The notes below the pieces were generated by a model. It had not been told where the DNA came from, made no database searches, and saw nothing but the letters and a program-made list of their open reading frames with translations. Of a stretch of DNA of 64,000 nt, positions 16,166 through 25,172 are shown piece after piece. Source of the stretch: Shigella phage SH7. The stretch's first letter is position 1; every line of letters begins with the position of its first letter. The position numbers and the translations under genes are program-made. The DNA lies in the sequence record KX828711. One strand, written 5' to 3'.

Positions 16166-16219
16166 TCCTCATGTTATGTCAGTAAGACTACTATAACACA
16201 ACACGAGGGACTTGTAAAC
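16166..16219. repeat. 54 bp direct repeat, copy 1 (early promoter plus leader; copy 2 at 31935-31988)
   Basis: 53 of 54 nt identical to 31935-31988. Confidence 0.85.
16190..16219 (-). promoter_or_regulatory. Early promoter for the 96 aa ORF
   Basis: Minus strand GTTTAC then 18 nt then TATAGT, followed by an AGGA RBS and ATG. Confidence 0.65.
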
Positions 16220-18276
16220 TACATTTTGAACTTTTTAGACATTCCGTTAATGTTAACCAAAGAAGCTAAGATTTGAGAAACTTCGTTTTCCTCTTCTTTT
16301 GATTCTTCTACAAGGAATTGATTAAATCCAGCCATTGGACGAACTTCACCAGTTTCCATTAGATGGTCGCCATCATATACTGATTCTTCTAATTGTTCAG
16401 AAGGAGGAACGATTGTACCTTCGATTAGATACTTGTTATAAGCAGTTTCTTTCATAAAGTAAGTACTTACTTTATTAATCTTCAGTAAAATTCCACGTGG
16501 TAGAATAACTTCAGCTTCTGATGGAAATCCTGATAAATGACCCGGAACGATAACTTTAACTCGTTCAGCTCCTTTAATTACCATACCCACGCTAGTTTCA
16601 GCATCTTCATTAGCATATGTAGAATGACTACCCATATGCATCAAATCTTCTGCATCAACGGAACCTTCTCCTTCACCAGAAAATACTGCTCCGGAATCAT
16701 CTAAGGCCATATAATTTTTACCATACTCACCAAAGATATTTGGTTTAAGTGATGTAGATACGAAGTTCTTGAAATAGAACATTTTATTTTCAATGTTATG
16801 ACGCAAAGTTTTAAAAGTAACTTCTTGTCCACGGTAAAGTGTAGTTCCTGGAGGAAGAACTGAACCTTTAGCAAACGCAGAATCCATAGTCTCGATGTGC
16901 TTAATAGCGCGCTCCATGTATTCTTCACGTGTAGAATCAGGTTTACCTAAAAGGAATGAGTTCATTTCAACATACGAATCTGCACAATAATCTTCAATTA
17001 CATCAGATTCAGCCTGAGTCAATCCTTTTGGAGTTACTTCAGTGCTTGCATATTCATACGCCTGAGCAGCGGATTCATCAATTAATTTATAAATGCCATT
17101 CATGACAAATTGAATAATAGCTGTCTTTTCATCTGGCGTAGCTTTAGAACCTTTAACTAAATCATTGACAATTTTCTTAATAACATCAAAGCTATTAGAA
17201 ATATTAATGTCAGCAAGATCGCTTAAAATTTTATCAGTTTTATAATCAAAAAATTCTTTATTCTTTAAATATTCTTGAGAACTTTGATATGTTATATCGC
17301 TCTGCAACTTGATAGATGGATCACGTAAACGTGCATGGGCTAATGCAATATGACTTCGGAAGCTTTCTAGTTCATAATCACTAGATTTAAAACGAGAAGC
17401 ACTCCTCATATCACCGATAGCTCCTTTGCCGAAGTTTGAACCAATCTGAATAACGCCAGAGTTCATTGGTCCTTCTGCTTTATATACCGGAACTTTAGAT
17501 TCAAACTCTTGATATTTCTTAGCAGCAAAGCTATCACCCTGAAGTGAAGCATCAACAGTAGAATATTGAGCTTGTGCTGCTAATCGACGACTAATTTTAG
17601 TTTTCTGAATAACAGCTTGATCCGTACGCTTATCATTTTCTAAAGCAATAGAAGCAGCAACTGCGACAGCTTTAGGAACAGCATTACCTGTTTTAACGTC
17701 TACATAAACATCACCGACTTTCGATTCAACTTTTGTGAATAACTCAGTTGAAATAGGAGGTACACCTGGAATGTCTTCTAAATTGGCATTTTTACGGTAA
17801 ACCATAATATATGCATATTTCTTATCATAGTCCCAGATTTCCTTTAAAAGAACATATCGACCTGCTCCTTTAGTACGTACTAAACGGTCAGCAATAACTT
17901 GCATTTGACGAGCAGCGCCATTTGTTTTACTTTTTAGTACGCGGAATAGGCATGCATCAATTTTATACTGTTTCATTGTTTGAAGAGCAGTATCAAAAAC
18001 AGCATTAATGACGCCAATTGGATTTCCACCCAAGTTTTTAAGCTTAACTAATGATAATTTTTCATTAACACCTATCATTACGATATGCATCATTTTGTCG
18101 CCTGGCTTAACGTTTTTATTCGTATCACCGCCAGAGGTGTATGTACAAAATCTAAATCCAGGAAGCACGCTTTCTTCACCGGCTTGAATAGCAAAAATTT
18201 GTGGTATTTTATGCTTAGGATTTAAGTTAACAACCGGCGCCGAAGCGCCGTCAAATAATTCTGTAATAAGTTCCAT
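16219..18276 (-). CDS. Alt-family ADP-ribosyltransferase paralog
   Basis: 685 aa; shares MELITELFD... N-terminus and conserved blocks with the adjacent alt product; ExE-type motif SEAEVILPRG; central region diverged. Confidence 0.8.
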   Translation of the reverse strand: MELITELFDGASAPVVNLNPKHKIPQIFAIQAGEESVLPGFRFCTYTSGGDTNKNVKPGDKMMHIVMIGVNEKLSLVKLKNLGGNPIGVINAVFDTALQTMKQYKIDACLFRVLKSKTNGAARQMQVIADRLVRTKGAGRYVLLKEIWDYDKKYAYIMVYRKNANLEDIPGVPPISTELFTKVESKVGDVYVDVKTGNAVPKAVAVAASIALENDKRTDQAVIQKTKISRRLAAQAQYSTVDASLQGDSFAAKKYQEFESKVPVYKAEGPMNSGVIQIGSNFGKGAIGDMRSASRFKSSDYELESFRSHIALAHARLRDPSIKLQSDITYQSSQEYLKNKEFFDYKTDKILSDLADINISNSFDVIKKIVNDLVKGSKATPDEKTAIIQFVMNGIYKLIDESAAQAYEYASTEVTPKGLTQAESDVIEDYCADSYVEMNSFLLGKPDSTREEYMERAIKHIETMDSAFAKGSVLPPGTTLYRGQEVTFKTLRHNIENKMFYFKNFVSTSLKPNIFGEYGKNYMALDDSGAVFSGEGEGSVDAEDLMHMGSHSTYANEDAETSVGMVIKGAERVKVIVPGHLSGFPSEAEVILPRGILLKINKVSTYFMKETAYNKYLIEGTIVPPSEQLEESVYDGDHLMETGEVRPMAGFNQFLVEESKEEENEVSQILASLVNINGMSKKFKM

Positions 18277-18279
18277 GAT

Positions 18280-20340
18280 TTATCCTTGAACGAACTTGTA
18301 AGGCATGTTTGTAATATCTATGCAAGACGCAATAATTCCAAGAGATGATTCTACTTTCTGTTTAACATTTGATGAAACAAATGATGCAAAGTCAACTCTG
18401 TCTTCTATTTCAATATCACCTGTCATTGCAACCAATTCACCAGTTTCCATTAGACGGTCACCGTCATAAATGACTGATTCGGTGAGTTCTTCCGTAGTCA
18501 TAACTTCAGCTTGAATAAGCTTGTTGTTAGTTTTGACTGTTCCATCATTGTAAGATGCATCAGTTATTTTATTAACTTTGACCATTAATCCACGTGGCAA
18601 AATGACTTCCATTTCATTTGAAGGCGCTAAACTTCCGCCTGGTAAAACAACATTGACTTTATCAGCCCCAGTAATAACCCATCCAATTCCGACTAAATTA
18701 TCGCTAGAATTAACAAGCCCTTCATCATTTTTATCGATAGAAATGTTTAGACGCTTTTCATCTGGTAAAACACCAACAGCTGAATCAGTCATCCAAGTAC
18801 CAAAAATGTTTGGATATAATGATGTTGATACAAAATTTCTAAAATAAAAAACTCGATTTTTTACCAATGCTTCATATATTGAAGGTAACATTCGCTGTGA
18901 ACGATATAAAGTAATACCCTTTGGCAATCGATCACCATTTTTAAAGGCTGAATCTAAATTATCGATGGCTTGTTCTATTTCAGGTGCTGTTAAAATACTT
19001 GTACGCTCATCTGGATTATATAATCCCAAAAGAGCATTATTCATGTCTACATATCCTGAACCTACATATTCACGAATTCCGCGTTTTTGCGCTGGCGTGT
19101 ATTTAGATGAATCTTTATTTTCGACTATAGAATGCAATGACCATCCAACAGTAAGAGCATATCCACGTAATTCTCTTCGAATAATCTTTGTTTTTATTGC
19201 ATTCCAAGAATTTTGCACTAACTCATTATTCGCAGTGTCTTGATTTAAATGCGAATGCTTGTTAATATTTCTTTCTAACCAAGCACCTTTATATTTTTCT
19301 AAAGTATCATCGACTATAGAAGCAATAGTTTCTAAAGTTTTTATTGAAGTAATAGATTCTTTTCGTAATCTTTCTAAAGCTTTATTTTTTATTTCTGTAT
19401 TAACATCAGATTCTTTATCTTCAGGAATTATAGAAGCTTCTCTGAATGCCATTCCAGCTGTAACACTATTAAGAGCATTCTCTAATGCAAATCCTGAAGT
19501 AGAAATAACAGTTAATTCATTAGCATCAGAAATTAAAGGAGCGTCAGCGGGTTTATTTAATTCTGCTGCTGAAGCCTCAAATTTTTGAAACATCGGCGTT
19601 TCAAATCTAGAAGATTCCAACGACTGACTTTGTGCAATTGCTCTACGGGAAATTTTAACTTTAACGATTACAGCTTGGTCAGAACGTTTATCATTTTCTT
19701 GTGCAATAGATGCTGCAATTGCCTCATTTTTAGTTACTTGGGCTCCAGTATCTTTATTGATATAAACATCACCGACCTTCGATTCAACTTTAGTAAAGAG
19801 CTCGGTACTAATTTCCGGAACTCCTGGAATGTCTTCTAGTGATACATTTTTGCGATGTATAAGAATATATGCATACTTTTTATCATAATCCCAGAGTTCC
19901 TTAAGAAGGACGTATCTGCCACCTGAACGACTACGGATAAGTCTATCAGCAATAACTTGAATTTGTCGAGCTTGGCCAGCAGTTTTAGACTTAAGAATAC
20001 GAAGCATACAAGCATCAATTTTATACTGACGCATCGTTTGCATTGCAACAGTAAAAACTGAATTGATATAATTAATTGGGCTTGGACCAAGACCTTTTAA
20101 TTTAGCAATTGAACCTTTAGCAGTTAATGTAAAAGGAACAATATGCATCATTTTATCGCCCATTTTTAAATCGCGATTAGTATCACCTCCAGATGTATAG
20201 GTACATAAACGAAAGCCTGGTTGTTCAATTGCGTCATCGACATGAACTGAAAAAATTTGTGGTATCTTCTTCTTTGGATTTAAGTTTGTAATCGGAAGAG
20301 TAGTATCTTCGTCAAATAATTCTGTAATAAGTTCCATCAT
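18280..20340 (-). CDS. alt: Alt ADP-ribosyltransferase (virion-packaged)
   Basis: 686 aa (T4 Alt 682 aa); MELITELFDEDTTLPITNL N-terminus; NEMEVILPRG ExE motif; immediately downstream of gene 30 with own late promoter. Confidence 0.85.
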   Translation of the reverse strand: MMELITELFDEDTTLPITNLNPKKKIPQIFSVHVDDAIEQPGFRLCTYTSGGDTNRDLKMGDKMMHIVPFTLTAKGSIAKLKGLGPSPINYINSVFTVAMQTMRQYKIDACMLRILKSKTAGQARQIQVIADRLIRSRSGGRYVLLKELWDYDKKYAYILIHRKNVSLEDIPGVPEISTELFTKVESKVGDVYINKDTGAQVTKNEAIAASIAQENDKRSDQAVIVKVKISRRAIAQSQSLESSRFETPMFQKFEASAAELNKPADAPLISDANELTVISTSGFALENALNSVTAGMAFREASIIPEDKESDVNTEIKNKALERLRKESITSIKTLETIASIVDDTLEKYKGAWLERNINKHSHLNQDTANNELVQNSWNAIKTKIIRRELRGYALTVGWSLHSIVENKDSSKYTPAQKRGIREYVGSGYVDMNNALLGLYNPDERTSILTAPEIEQAIDNLDSAFKNGDRLPKGITLYRSQRMLPSIYEALVKNRVFYFRNFVSTSLYPNIFGTWMTDSAVGVLPDEKRLNISIDKNDEGLVNSSDNLVGIGWVITGADKVNVVLPGGSLAPSNEMEVILPRGLMVKVNKITDASYNDGTVKTNNKLIQAEVMTTEELTESVIYDGDRLMETGELVAMTGDIEIEDRVDFASFVSSNVKQKVESSLGIIASCIDITNMPYKFVQG

Positions 20341-20374: not shown

Positions 20375-20390
20375 AAGGCCCGAAGGCCTT
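20375..20390 (-). terminator. Hairpin downstream of the gene 30 operon
   Basis: AAGGCC-UUCG-GGCCUU in transcript sense, overlapping the stop of the 62 aa ORF. Confidence 0.6.
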
Positions 20391-20578
20391 TAGTAATCTA
20401 GTGGTAAGAGAGTACGATATATTTCAAACTTTGGTCCTTTTTCATAGGCATCAAATGTTTCTGTAAATTTATTGTAAGCGTATGCATCTACAAATTCGAG
20501 AATGACTTGTGATACAGAAGTAGAAACATCTCCACCTTCTTTTTGAGCAATGACAATTGTTTCTAAGTAAGCTTTCAT
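20390..20578 (-). CDS. Hypothetical protein between gene 30 and alt
   Basis: 62 aa ORF; its start overlaps the gene 30 stop (ATGA). Confidence 0.55.
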   Translation of the reverse strand: MKAYLETIVIAQKEGGDVSTSVSQVILEFVDAYAYNKFTETFDAYEKGPKFEIYRTLLPLDY

Positions 20579-22038
20579 AAACCAGTTACCTCATGAAAAT
20601 CACCAAATACATCCTCGAATGTATTAGCTTTAGTTTTATCTTCACGTAAACGAATCGCAATCGGAAGAAATAATTTAACGTAATCGGTGCGGCCATCAGA
20701 TTTTAACCAACCGTTGCATTCGCACTCTAGAATTTTTCCAATATAATAATTTTGGTTTTCCATAATGCGAGTACGGTCAAGTTCATGCGATTTTACACCG
20801 GCTTTATCTTTTAAGCCTGAACCAGCATTTACTTTAATTTTTCCACACTCTGACTCAAGAATAAATCCACCAGCTTTAGTAGGGTCTTTACGGTGAGGAT
20901 AAATTCCTACAATTTTTAAATCAACATCAATTACTTCTTTAAATTTATAAAGATTTTTTGAACGAGCATTTTCCCATAATCCATCGGTATTTTTGAGAAT
21001 AATACCTTCAAGACCTTGGTCAATATACTTTTTGTAAATTACCTTAGCTTCATCTAGGTTATTTACTAGCTGGTTTTCAATTAAAATTACTTTATCATAG
21101 CCTGATGTCATTTGTTCTAGTTTAGAAAAACGTACATCATACTTTAAACGAAATGCAGGAAGACCATATATTTCTACTAATGGAACATAGTCCCAGACCT
21201 GAAACTTCATGCATTGAGCTTCTTTTTCTGAAATAGTTCCCTTTAAAGATTTATTAGCGATTCCATTAGAAGCAGTACGTGATTCAGCTACTTCGGCGAA
21301 TTCTTTAGCTTTACTAATTTCAGGATAAGCATCAAAAAGAAAATCTAGGCCTTCTGGCTCCTTTTTAACTTGCTCATGGTATACCAATTCGCCATCAATT
21401 AACACACCTTCTGGATGAATCTGGCGAGCTTCTGCAGTCATTTTAATTAACTCTTCCTTAAGAAGATCTAATCCTAGATATTCATTACCAGCTCGTGATA
21501 AAAGACGAACATCATCTAATTCATCACCTCTGACTTCAGCAAAGCACCGAGCTCCATCAGCTTTTAATTGGGCAAAGGCTGGAAATTTGATATTCTTATT
21601 AATGCCTTTTTCATCATAAGAACTTGCCAGCATTTGAGGTTGTTCAGGAATTAAACCTGGCCAAACTTTGTTTGCAATAGATACTGAAGCACCGCATTCA
21701 AGGTCTCGCATCATCACCCGACGCAAAACTTCAACATCATCTTTTTTACCGTCAGTAATATATCCAGTTAATTCCTCAATTGCCGCATTTCCGGTCAATT
21801 TCCGAGTAGCTAACGTGAATTCAATGAAGTCAAGCATATCGGTAAGAGTTAACATTCCAAAACTCTGGGTAGCAATACCCGGTTTAGGCCATTTCTTGAT
21901 ATAATACTGTAACCCACGAGAATAAGTCAGACGATATACTCGTTTAAGCAATTCATTATCTTTATTCTTTTCAAGAATTGCTTGCTTCTGTTTAGTTGAA
22001 CCAATAGATGCTATTTCATTCAGAATTTTAAGAATCAT
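20575..22038 (-). CDS. 30: ATP-dependent DNA ligase gp30
   Basis: 487 aa as in T4 DNA ligase; adenylation motif K-x-DG (AQLKADGARC). Confidence 0.95.
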   Translation of the reverse strand: MILKILNEIASIGSTKQKQAILEKNKDNELLKRVYRLTYSRGLQYYIKKWPKPGIATQSFGMLTLTDMLDFIEFTLATRKLTGNAAIEELTGYITDGKKDDVEVLRRVMMRDLECGASVSIANKVWPGLIPEQPQMLASSYDEKGINKNIKFPAFAQLKADGARCFAEVRGDELDDVRLLSRAGNEYLGLDLLKEELIKMTAEARQIHPEGVLIDGELVYHEQVKKEPEGLDFLFDAYPEISKAKEFAEVAESRTASNGIANKSLKGTISEKEAQCMKFQVWDYVPLVEIYGLPAFRLKYDVRFSKLEQMTSGYDKVILIENQLVNNLDEAKVIYKKYIDQGLEGIILKNTDGLWENARSKNLYKFKEVIDVDLKIVGIYPHRKDPTKAGGFILESECGKIKVNAGSGLKDKAGVKSHELDRTRIMENQNYYIGKILECECNGWLKSDGRTDYVKLFLPIAIRLREDKTKANTFEDVFGDFHEVTGL

Positions 22039-22304
22039 TGTTCATCCTTTAGAGTTTGGTTTACAGCTCTATTATAAATCAATTCATCATTAAGCTCAGG
22101 CAAAGACCTATGATATGTAGTTCTAACTTTATTTCCTTGCATCCAGTGCTTGACGTAAATGAAACCTTGCTCTACACATTTTTTAAAAATTCGTTCGTCT
22201 TTTTGAGCTCGAAATTCTGGATTGCATCTAAAAAATTGATTTACGTGACCGTAATCACGTGTAGTATTACCTTCATTTTCATAAATAGTGTGAACAACAA
22301 ACAT
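22035..22304 (-). CDS. Hypothetical protein (position of T4 30.1)
   Basis: 89 aa ORF overlapping the gene 30 start by 4 nt. Confidence 0.6.
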   Translation of the reverse strand: MFVVHTIYENEGNTTRDYGHVNQFFRCNPEFRAQKDERIFKKCVEQGFIYVKHWMQGNKVRTTYHRSLPELNDELIYNRAVNQTLKDEQ

Positions 22305-23143
22305 TAGAATGCTCCTTGGAAAATATTATCACCACCAGTAGGTCTATTATACAAATACTCTATGCCACCAGGTTTAATATAGTTCCATGTCTGAAACGGA
22401 TGTGTCTGATATGGATGATATAGATGATTATAAGGATTAAATCCAGGAGTTCTCCAGGTAGTGTTCCAAGGAAAAGAATCGTTTTTAACCATCTTCTCAA
22501 TTAAATCTTTTATAGCTTTTTCACTATCAAAACTTTCTTTATTTTCCTTCGATGGAAAAAGCTTATTCTCTACATCATTCCATGTATAAACTCGCTGCGC
22601 AGTTTTTGGAATACTGTCACGCTCCCCTCGAGCCATCCAATAAACAGGAACATTTAATATTTCACTCGCGTGATCGCAGTGGTGAGCGAGATCGTCAATA
22701 TAACAAATTACGTTATATTTCTCTTTTGCCTTTTTGAACAACTCTTCTTTTGAAGAATCATGACCACACATCAATACTTCTGAGAAGGCACCAGGAAAAA
22801 GAGCATTCAAATTAAATTGACGATTTAGCAGAGCGTCAATAGAATCACCCAATGCTGTAACAGCTACAAAATTATAATCTTCTTTTAATTTGTTAATTAC
22901 ACACAGGGCATCTTTATACGGAGACAAGTAACGAATAAAATCTGAACGATTGTATTTTTCAATTAACTTGACACCAAGTTCTTCATCGCAATTAAAGAGC
23001 TTACCAGGAGAAATAAATTTTTCGTCCTGAATCATTTTTAAAATATGTTCCAACGGAAGATTATATTTTTGGGCAAAATAAGGAAGACCTGATTGCCAGC
23101 TTAAACATACACCATCAATATCAGTTAAAATAGTAGGCTTCAT
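22304..23143 (-). CDS. HAD-superfamily-like hydrolase (position of T4 30.2)
   Basis: 279 aa; N-terminal ILTDIDGV (HAD motif I DxDxV) and YIDDL (motif IV). Confidence 0.6.
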   Translation of the reverse strand: MKPTILTDIDGVCLSWQSGLPYFAQKYNLPLEHILKMIQDEKFISPGKLFNCDEELGVKLIEKYNRSDFIRYLSPYKDALCVINKLKEDYNFVAVTALGDSIDALLNRQFNLNALFPGAFSEVLMCGHDSSKEELFKKAKEKYNVICYIDDLAHHCDHASEILNVPVYWMARGERDSIPKTAQRVYTWNDVENKLFPSKENKESFDSEKAIKDLIEKMVKNDSFPWNTTWRTPGFNPYNHLYHPYQTHPFQTWNYIKPGGIEYLYNRPTGGDNIFQGAF

Positions 23144-23604
23144 AGAGAGTCTCTTAATAGGTTTAACACATCAATAAATTCAGCTTCAGTTAGTATTGTA
23201 TCATCTTTTGTTAGACCACTAGCCATGCTGTGCTTCAAAACTTTTCCTTTCGAGGCTTGTAATGCATCACGAAAGCCCTTGTTTTGGATCGCTGCCTCAA
23301 AATACGCATTTGTGTATAATTCTTTCCAGGCTGGGGAGTATCTTGAAAACGGAACTCCAAGCCAGAAGAGGGTCCCACGGTCCTGAGCTCTAGTATAAGA
23401 CCTTCCAGCTTGTTGGGCGGCAAGCCCGGATAACCCAAATATACGTCTTTGTTGTTCAACATTTTTCACCTTACATCCTTGGAGGAATCCTTCGAGACCT
23501 CCAAATTGAATGCCATCCATAACGAAAGGCCAATAGGCGAAATTACTTAATGCACATGATGGCCACCTAAAATTACTTCTAATCTCTAACTCAGACATTT
23601 TCAA
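23140..23604 (-). CDS. NADAR/YbiA-like (DUF1768) protein (position of T4 30.3)
   Basis: 154 aa; LSNFAYWPF...DGIQFGGLEGFLQGCK pattern resembles the E. coli YbiA FSNFA.WP...DG..W.TSEHYFQA.K signature. Confidence 0.6.
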   Translation of the reverse strand: MKMSELEIRSNFRWPSCALSNFAYWPFVMDGIQFGGLEGFLQGCKVKNVEQQRRIFGLSGLAAQQAGRSYTRAQDRGTLFWLGVPFSRYSPAWKELYTNAYFEAAIQNKGFRDALQASKGKVLKHSMASGLTKDDTILTEAEFIDVLNLLRDSL

Positions 23605-23797
23605 TGCTTATAATTTCAACATCAGCCCAATGACCATAGTTTGGTAGACGAAATTCAACTGGCCAGTCACTGCCTTTTTCTAATATAATAGACTTAACTT
23701 GCGGTTCTTCATGTTCATCAGTATATGGATTTTTATCTGTTACTTTATATGTGACCTTAATGTACTGAATTCCAAAAATCTTATTAATTATATTCAT
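23591..23797 (-). CDS. Hypothetical protein (30.x cluster)
   Basis: 68 aa ORF in a tightly packed co-oriented array. Confidence 0.55.
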   Translation of the reverse strand: MNIINKIFGIQYIKVTYKVTDKNPYTDEHEEPQVKSIILEKGSDWPVEFRLPNYGHWADVEIISIENV

Positions 23798-23991
23798 ACT
23801 AATTCCTTTAATCCGTAAATAGGAGATAATTCATCACCCATACGAAGGTCTTCATTTCCATCTACCCAGGAAACAATATAAGCCTCTTTTATTTGAACAC
23901 CACTCCATTTAAATGGAGGTAGAACCTTAGAAATTAATCCAGGTATACCAACTCCCTTTAATTCAACAGTTTGACCTAAAAAGAATTTCAT
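23794..23991 (-). CDS. Hypothetical protein (30.x cluster)
   Basis: 65 aa ORF, 4 nt overlap with neighbours. Confidence 0.55.
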   Translation of the reverse strand: MKFFLGQTVELKGVGIPGLISKVLPPFKWSGVQIKEAYIVSWVDGNEDLRMGDELSPIYGLKELV

Positions 23992-25142: not shown

Positions 25143-25172
25143 AACTTTATGCAATCTTTGGAAAATAAAAAA

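Follow-up and report, generated by a model that had tools for sequence, protein, structure and literature searches.

The stretch of DNA analysed here (the window, 64,000 nucleotides) comes from Shigella phage SH7 (KX828711) and belongs to a Tequatrovirus, or T4-like, genome. Across positions 22000–23900, megablast gives 99.1% identity to Escherichia phage 4E10 and 97% identity to RB51, RB14, AR1 and others, in which the genes of this region are named 30.1–30.5 and DNA ligase. Altogether, the match extends over 80% or more of the region in 494 phage records, and identity to many Tequatrovirus genomes is 97–99%. The original prediction, made from the letters alone, had drawn two open reading frames here, encoding proteins of 154 and 279 residues. 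Both are real and lie where they had been drawn, on the minus strand, which had been left unstated; the plus-strand translation of both intervals is closed, being full of stops. They correspond to genes 30.3 and 30.2, which are a conserved gene pair, and a chance pattern is excluded.

On the minus strand, gene 30.4 (23591–23797; 68 residues, function unknown) is followed by 30.3, also called adfN (23140–23598; 152 residues from an ATG at 23598), by 30.2 (22304–23143; 279 residues), by 30.1 (22035–22304; 89 residues, DUF3045; PF11243, E = 1.6e-63) and by gene 30, which encodes the ATP-dependent DNA ligase (20575–22038; identified by megablast and by the T4 annotation). Downstream of the ligase lies alt.1 (20390–20578), and two full-length Alt paralogues occupy 18280–20340 and 16219–18276. 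One of these shares 96% identity with T4 Alt. The second, reduced to fragments in T4, has 42% identity to the first. The neighbourhood is therefore as predicted, with DNA ligase and two Alt genes close by.

The genes are tightly packed. The stop codon of 30.4 and the start of adfN share an 8-nucleotide overlap (ATGTCTGA), the stop of 30.3 overlaps the start of 30.2 (ATGA), and the stop of 30.2 overlaps the start of 30.1 (TAATG). Because their stop and start codons overlap, 30.3 and 30.2 are probably co-transcribed. In a consensus scan for terminators, which found no more sites than expected by chance, the first minus-strand terminator-like site downstream of the 30.x genes is a hairpin just after alt.1 (20392–20373), and there is none between position 25171 and that hairpin. 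Since no earlier site intervenes, 30.4-30.3-30.2-30.1-30-alt.1 look co-transcribed, as one transcript. A promoter scan returned 22 sites against 23.4 expected, which is not above chance.

The start of 30.3 at 23598 is that of the T4 annotation and of its 152-residue orthologue; the predicted length of 154 residues came from an in-frame TTG at 23604, two codons upstream of the ATG. The SH7 product is identical to T4 gp30.3 (AdfN) at 149 of 152 positions (98%), equals it in length and shares its position between 30.4 and 30.2. The three differences (Q22Y, A69T and I125M) all fall outside conserved positions. The catalytic residues of the T4 protein are shared, with E36 encoded at 23491–23493 and K43 at 23470–23472. 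The subfamily-defining residue H123 is encoded at 23230–23232, and the C-terminal helix (residues 138–151) is intact.

Gene 30.3 had been predicted to encode a member of the NADAR/YbiA family, and several lines of evidence bear this out. The protein matches the curated Pfam family Phage_30_3 (PF08010) with E = 3e-69 and a score of 231.6 bits, the cut-off being 36. The motif on which the prediction had drawn, LSNFAYWPF...DGIQFGGLEGFLQGCK, is present and aligns with the YbiA motif FSNFAAWPIKVDGKTWPTSEHYFQAQK. The E-x6-K motif (GGLE36GFLQGCK43) aligns with SEHYFQAQK of YbiA. Across an alignment of 45 AdfN homologues, P13, A16-L17-S18-N19-F20, E36-G37-F38, Q40 and H123 are invariant and K43 is nearly so (at least 90% conserved). 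E. coli YbiA (2b3w) is the one PDB entry that the family profile matches (E = 0.0027), and the match spans the catalytic motif. The Pfam NADAR model PF08719 is reached by 4 of the 45 family members (best E = 1.5e-7), and the SH7 protein itself falls short of its threshold, so that the link to NADARs runs through the family profile and the fold. Single-sequence searches of the PDB with the 30.3 and 30.2 proteins gave nothing significant.

The fold is that of a NADAR. The AF2 model of AdfN is confident (pLDDT 94.1, pTM 0.89), and comparison with YbiA, which the original prediction had put forward as a check, places 2b3w first among Foldseek matches in the PDB (E = 2.4e-4, TMq 0.66). Next come the Phytophthora NADAR PnNADAR (8bau) and the Geobacter lovleyi NADAR (8bat), and everything beyond these three NADARs is noise. 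In the model, H123 directly follows the strand formed by residues 120–122. Fold, E/K motif, H123 and the curated family model all place SH7 AdfN in the NADAR superfamily.

NADARs reverse guanine ADP-ribosylation (Schuller et al. 2023, PMC11543638). At the position that is Glu in YbiA and Asp in the BC4488 subfamily, phage NADARs have His (PMC11543638). This His in the last strand is their defining mark (PMC11125620, PMC11543638), and it corresponds to H123 of SH7 AdfN. In vitro, T4 gp30.3 hydrolyses guanosine-ADPr and leaves thymidine-ADPr untouched (Toxins 2024, PMC11125620); in uninfected cells it does not rescue DarT1 toxicity (PMC11125620). The resistance of T-even phages to DarTG1 was mapped to gene 30.3, which was renamed adfN, for anti-DarT factor NADAR (Johannesman, Carlson & LeRoux, Nat Commun 2025, PMC11825919). 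In that study, T4 AdfN proved both necessary and sufficient for T-even phages to resist DarTG1, the substitutions E36A and K43A impaired it, and a frameshift that deletes the last helix accounted for the inactive RB69 allele. The purified protein took ADP-ribose off DarT1-modified DNA and did not bind DarT1. AdfN-T4 worked fully only in a T-even infection, and the authors proposed that an additional T-even protein is involved (PMC11825919).

Independent confirmation comes from the DarTG1 table of the HIDEN-SEQ transposon screen (bioRxiv 10.1101/2025.11.20.689424), in which insertions in T4 30.3 are lost (log2FC -7.25). Insertions in T4 30.4 are partly depleted in the same table (log2FC -1.79, adjusted p = 0.014), probably through a polar effect on adfN.

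The predicted reversal of nucleic-acid ADP-ribosylation has thus been demonstrated for the T4 orthologue (PMC11825919, PMC11125620). Action on protein, which had been offered alongside it, is not supported: the NADAR activity tested is specific for guanine-ADP-ribose in DNA. Both the NADAR identity and the role in DNA de-ADP-ribosylation were published in 2023–2025, and the SH7 window therefore adds one more intact adfN allele. With 98% identity to T4 AdfN, intact E36, K43 and H123 and an intact C-terminal helix, the SH7 enzyme is likely to be active, and we expect no functional difference from its T4 counterpart.

AdfN is best understood beside the NADAR antitoxins of the DarG1 type that are associated with DarT1 (BC4488; G. 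lovleyi 8bat) and beside YbiA (2b3w). All have the YbiA/NADAR fold (Foldseek TM 0.55–0.66), a common catalytic motif of Glu and Lys, and a common guanine-ADP-ribose hydrolase chemistry (tested for T4 gp30.3). However, AdfN is only 15–18% identical to them in sequence, and it has H123 in the last strand in place of the Asp of BC4488 and the Glu of YbiA. Unlike the DarT1-associated antitoxins it has no adjoining DarT toxin gene, and unlike DarG1, AdfN-T4 cannot stand in as antitoxin in uninfected cells.

Gene 30.2 encodes a separate protein. SH7 gp30.2 has 279 residues against 278 in T4, with 96% identity, and it contains both of the sequences (ILTDIDGV, motif I, and YIDDL, motif IV) that had led to its prediction as a HAD hydrolase. 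A HAD core with an inserted helical cap spans residues 1–195 (22559–23143, minus strand); residues 196–279 and the stop codon make up a C-terminal extension (22304–22558, minus strand). Motif I reads D8-x-D10-G-V, with its aspartates encoded at 23120–23122 and 23114–23116, and motifs II–IV are represented by T96, K132 and D150-D151. An alignment of 45 family members shows no variation at D8, D10 and K132 and at least 90% conservation of T96, D150 and D151. In HAD enzymes an Asp at the +2 position, here D10, marks phosphatases and mutases, not dehalogenases. The AF2 model has a confident Rossmann-like HAD core, with cap helices at about residues 16–86 (some 75 residues between motifs I and II), and its pLDDT falls to 44–63 beyond residue 220.

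Four conserved catalytic motifs and a HAD fold in the model uphold the HAD assignment. Profile searches, proposed earlier as a check on both proteins, were successful for 30.3, with its match to PF08010 and the link of its family to NADAR, but not for 30.2, which has no HAD match in Pfam or NCBIfam above the curated threshold. Scanned directly with the HMMs of Pfam, NCBIfam and PADLOC, gp30.2 yielded either no match or matches at noise level (to thiamin pyrophosphokinase, with E values of 0.09 and 0.015), and its PHROGs entry reads function unknown. Among the 45 members, 12 reach PF00702 and 7 reach PF13419 (HAD_2), all below threshold. Membership of the HAD superfamily consequently rests on the motifs and the fold.

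The C-terminal extension consists of one helix (residues 200–220) and a Pro/Trp/Tyr-rich segment, predicted to be disordered, with a GIEYL motif. Of 93 homologues, 33 lack it, and in the others its sequence is hypervariable; 15 of the 57 long tails contain a G[IV]E[YW] motif, and tail motifs such as GT-GIEYL-NRQPTA are kept only inside subclades. The family as a whole is compact and confined to phages: a profile search of 5.8 billion proteins returned 140 clusters and no annotated cellular relatives, and gp30.2 is present in about 1,400 sequenced phages. One database protein fuses the gp30.2 core to a 30.1 domain. Literature searches, one of them in full texts for the name 'gp30.2', brought up no paper about the protein.

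The closest relatives of gp30.2 point to the NT5C nucleotidases. Its best PDB profile match is mouse cdN (2jao, E = 0.06), and its model superposes most tightly, by TMt and rmsd, on cdN, mdN and 3bwv (TMt 0.63–0.70). Eight of the 45 members match PF06941 (NT5C) below threshold (best E = 1.2e-4); beyond PF06941, PF00702 and HAD_2, the other Pfam families that appear are singletons. SH7 gp30.2 itself does not match PF06941. However, a remote viral relative (L078) that aligns with the gp30.2 profile (hhalign probability 98.5%, E = 2e-15) passes the PF06941 gathering score, with 28.3 bits against 24.8.

The likeness extends to architecture. The 5'(3')-deoxyribonucleotidases (cdN 2jao/2i7d, mdN 1q92 and Staphylococcus epidermidis 3bwv) share with gp30.2 the HAD core, the four motifs, the inserted helical cap and a core of similar size, about 190 residues; DGV..W16-x-S-G-L of gp30.2 aligns with DGVLADFESGL of cdN. 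Identity is nevertheless 17–20%, the SH7 protein falls below the Pfam threshold, and gp30.2 differs from the NT5C enzymes in its additional 84-residue helix and disordered tail and in being a phage-only family. We conclude that gp30.2 is probably a HAD-superfamily aspartyl-phosphatase, closest in sequence profile and in modelled structure to the NT5C group. Judging by this kinship, its substrate is most likely a small (deoxy)nucleoside monophosphate, which it would dephosphorylate. The affinity for NT5C makes the predicted part in nucleotide metabolism plausible; the tie to ADP-ribose that accompanied it is not supported, as neither synteny nor the T4 transposon tables contain evidence for one.

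Physical linkage bears directly on whether the two proteins work together. HMM scans covered the 8 kb on either side of 78 gp30.2 loci and of 80 loci of the AdfN family, all taken from viral contigs. Of the 78 gp30.2 genes, 72 are directly followed by a DNA ligase gene in the same orientation, 24 of them with 30.1 interposed. An AdfN gene falls inside the 8-kb flanks of gp30.2 at only 37 of the 78 loci, and gp30.2 is close to AdfN at only 20 of the 80. The distance from AdfN to gp30.2 and to the ligase/alt cluster is 55–65 kb in at least seven complete T4-like genomes. At the level of whole genomes the genes occur in 1438 and 1509 of 50,697 phage records, both Straboviridae-wide and with nearly the same distribution over genera, a co-occurrence that we ascribe to shared ancestry.

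The transposon data point the same way. In the HIDEN-SEQ tables for T4, insertions in 30.2 are neutral under DarTG1 (log2FC -0.12, p = 0.61, 71 sites), and the gene is non-essential on K-12 (insertions at 72 of 72 sites) and neutral in M9 versus LB (log2FC -0.10). Insertions in 30.1, alt, modA, modB and nudE are likewise neutral under DarTG1 in that data set. Because T4 30.2 tolerates insertion under DarTG1, gp30.2 is not required for the anti-DarTG1 function. With log2FC values of -0.12 for 30.2 and -7.25 for 30.3, and with gp30.2 syntenic with ligase and not with AdfN, the joint role in ADP-ribose metabolism that had been predicted for the two proteins is not supported.

We consider it very likely that 30.3 is AdfN, the anti-DarTG1 hydrolase, and that 30.2 is a separate HAD phosphatase outside the anti-DarTG1 function. 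Host DarTG1 would sense infection, whereupon its toxin DarT1 would ADP-ribosylate guanines in the phage DNA and block replication. AdfN, a stand-alone ADP-ribosylglycohydrolase of the phage NADAR type, would cleave the bond between ribose and guanine and free ADP-ribose, so that replication could be restored. It would act enzymatically, in the manner of an orphan DarG1 antitoxin, without binding the toxin. This mechanism has been demonstrated for the T4 protein and is presumed for the closely similar SH7 copy. Gene 30.2 would simply have been inherited within the DNA-ligase gene cluster and would play no part in the anti-DarTG1 function.

Several other readings deserve consideration. It is unlikely, though the best placed of these, that gp30.2 is a conditionally important enzyme, kept beside DNA ligase throughout Straboviridae, and not a housekeeping nucleotidase. 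Its substrate might then be a phosphorylated nucleotide connected with defence or damage, or else the end of a nucleic acid, and its fast-evolving disordered tail might dock a phage or host partner. Were this so, gp30.2 would be an undiscovered counter-defence or repair factor, with a phenotype only on hosts that have the matching system.

The adjacency to ligase invites a second reading, in which gp30.2 is a DNA-end-healing 3'-phosphatase that readies nicks for the downstream ligase, the two forming a heal-and-seal pair like that involving the phosphatase domain of PNKP. In its favour, the neighbouring ligase recurs in T4-like phages of Escherichia, Klebsiella, Acinetobacter and Aeromonas and in further T4-like phages, the DxD nucleophile and acid-base pair of a phosphatase is supplied by D8 and D10, and T4 PseT has a 3'-phosphatase domain that belongs to the HAD family. 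However, HAD enzymes with the cap type of gp30.2 enclose small-molecule substrates, and those that act on macromolecules, such as PNKP, have no cap; the long helical insertion between motifs I and II of the gp30.2 model therefore fits this role badly. The closest relatives by sequence and by structure are mononucleotidases, and 30.2 is dispensable in the HIDEN-SEQ tables, in which ligase is essential. Moreover, no ligase lies within 8 kb of the remote homologues L075–L078 or of L070 (41% identity), which means that the link is lost beyond most T4-like genomes; and because common descent strongly preserves gene order among T4-like genomes, synteny by itself says little. On account of the inserted cap and the affinity for NT5C we regard this reading as quite improbable.

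The full activity of AdfN-T4 in T-even infection alone, and the additional T-even protein proposed to explain it (PMC11825919), make a link between gp30.2 and AdfN worth testing. Under such a link, gp30.2 would be that T-even-specific factor, or would process the ADP-ribose released by AdfN or products of it (AMP, ribose-5-phosphate). The ATGA overlap of the adfN stop and the 30.2 start favours cooperation, as does the presence of both genes in about the same Straboviridae genomes. So does a divergent locus (L111), without ligase in the vicinity, in which some 700 bp separate a HAD homologue from an AdfN homologue downstream of it; the genes around them yielded nothing informative in Pfam scans. 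Yet the 71 insertion sites of T4 30.2 show no depletion in the table in which 30.3 is lost, the two genes are neighbours in fewer than half of the gp30.2 loci and a quarter of the AdfN loci, they are far apart in the complete genomes noted above, and their genome-level co-occurrence is confounded by shared ancestry. We regard cooperation as highly improbable, although the co-occurrence and the codon overlap leave it a slim chance in a conditional or redundant form. As the missing T-even cofactor of AdfN, specifically, gp30.2 is rejected on the HIDEN-SEQ DarTG1 table together with the weak physical linkage, which argues that gp30.2 is not the answer to the published puzzle.

That AdfN mainly reverses the phage's own ADP-ribosylation of proteins or RNA (by Alt and its paralogue, ModA and ModB) is scarcely credible: adfN does lie about 2.8 kb from the two alt genes in the SH7 window, but all tested NADARs, T4 gp30.3 included, act on guanine-ADP-ribose in DNA, sensitivity to DarTG1 is the only phenotype found, alt, modA and modB are neutral in the HIDEN-SEQ DarTG1 table, and many T4-like genomes keep AdfN 55–65 kb from alt and ligase. 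For the same reasons the earlier argument from placement beside Alt does not hold: AdfN counters host DarT1, not phage Alt.

On the reading that we prefer, with AdfN as the anti-DarTG1 hydrolase and gp30.2 as a separate phosphatase, the locus is ordinary and largely known, and gives no sign of a new kind of system. Its practical value lies in annotation, as GenBank records label both genes 'hypothetical protein'. AdfN is a textbook-in-the-making case of a phage 'orphan antitoxin', an enzyme that erases the DNA ADP-ribosylation laid down by a host defence. Gene 30.2 poses a modest question, that of a widely conserved, ligase-adjacent phosphatase with a clear phosphatase active site.

The gene encoding the NADAR hydrolase AdfN, adfN, has been relocated within the genome, while that for gp30.2, the HAD-type phosphatase beside it in SH7, stayed with DNA ligase. 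We draw this from at least seven complete T4-like genomes, in which the AdfN homologue, of ~40% identity, lies 55–65 kb from the gp30.2–ligase cluster (viral-contig loci L106, L107, L113, L129, L143, L144 and L148 versus L067, L016, L042, L073, L035, L022 and L029). The arrangement differs in a 166 kb viral contig (L111:6736–8456), where the gene order is reversed: about 700 bp separate an upstream gp30.2-like HAD gene from an AdfN homologue. There is no ligase within 8 kb of this pair, and a Pfam scan of the neighbouring ORFs gave no matches.

gp30.2 itself occurs in an in-frame fusion. The 302-residue protein P0015, from a 1.4 kb contig, joins the gp30.2 HAD core to a gp30.1/DUF3045 domain, which occupies the place of the gp30.2 disordered tail. 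If genuine, the fusion would hint at a link between 30.2 and 30.1; alternatively, it may be an artefact of assembly or of a frameshift.

The window also holds a tandem pair of full-length genes for Alt ADP-ribosyltransferase paralogues, both on the minus strand and 42% identical to one another. The product of 18280–20340 (686 residues) is the orthologue of T4 Alt, with 96% identity, and that of 16219–18276 (685 residues) is the second paralogue, of which nothing but the fragments alt.-1 and alt.-2 remains in T4. Other loci have one to three alt copies.

Could gene 30.4 encode a second factor against the host defence DarTG1? Insertions in T4 30.4 were also depleted under DarTG1 in a transposon screen (log2FC −1.79, adjusted p 0.014; bioRxiv 10.1101/2025.11.20.689424). 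However, the stop codon of 30.4 (23591–23797, minus strand) overlaps the start of adfN by 8 nt, so that polarity or translational coupling, and not a second anti-DarTG1 factor, probably accounts for the depletion. Within adfN, an alternative frame annotated in T4 as ORF 30.3' (23235–23462, minus strand) is open in the window for 75 residues. Among relatives with AdfN at least 84% identical, this frame is open for 74–75 codons in most, and three lack its start, leaving 53 codons; it is closed in relatives with AdfN identity of 46% or less.

In the methods of a Toxins 2024 paper (PMC11125620) the T4 gp30.3 construct is given as residues 1–208, whereas the protein has 152 residues; the mismatch may stem from tag numbering or from a different phage allele. 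In nearly all matched GenBank phage records, recent ones included, adfN and 30.2 alike are still listed as 'hypothetical protein'; for gp30.2 homologues, a few give '5'-3' deoxyribonucleotidase', 'HAD-superfamily hydrolase' or, mistakenly, 'DNA ligase'.

Close relatives include many shortened AdfN variants, of 126, 109 or 89–91 residues (protein clusters P0104–P0107, P0113 and P0117), and a further shortened ORF has 122 codons (L013:7636–8001). These variants suggest that adfN has been inactivated repeatedly in natural T-even populations, much as in the frameshifted allele of RB69.
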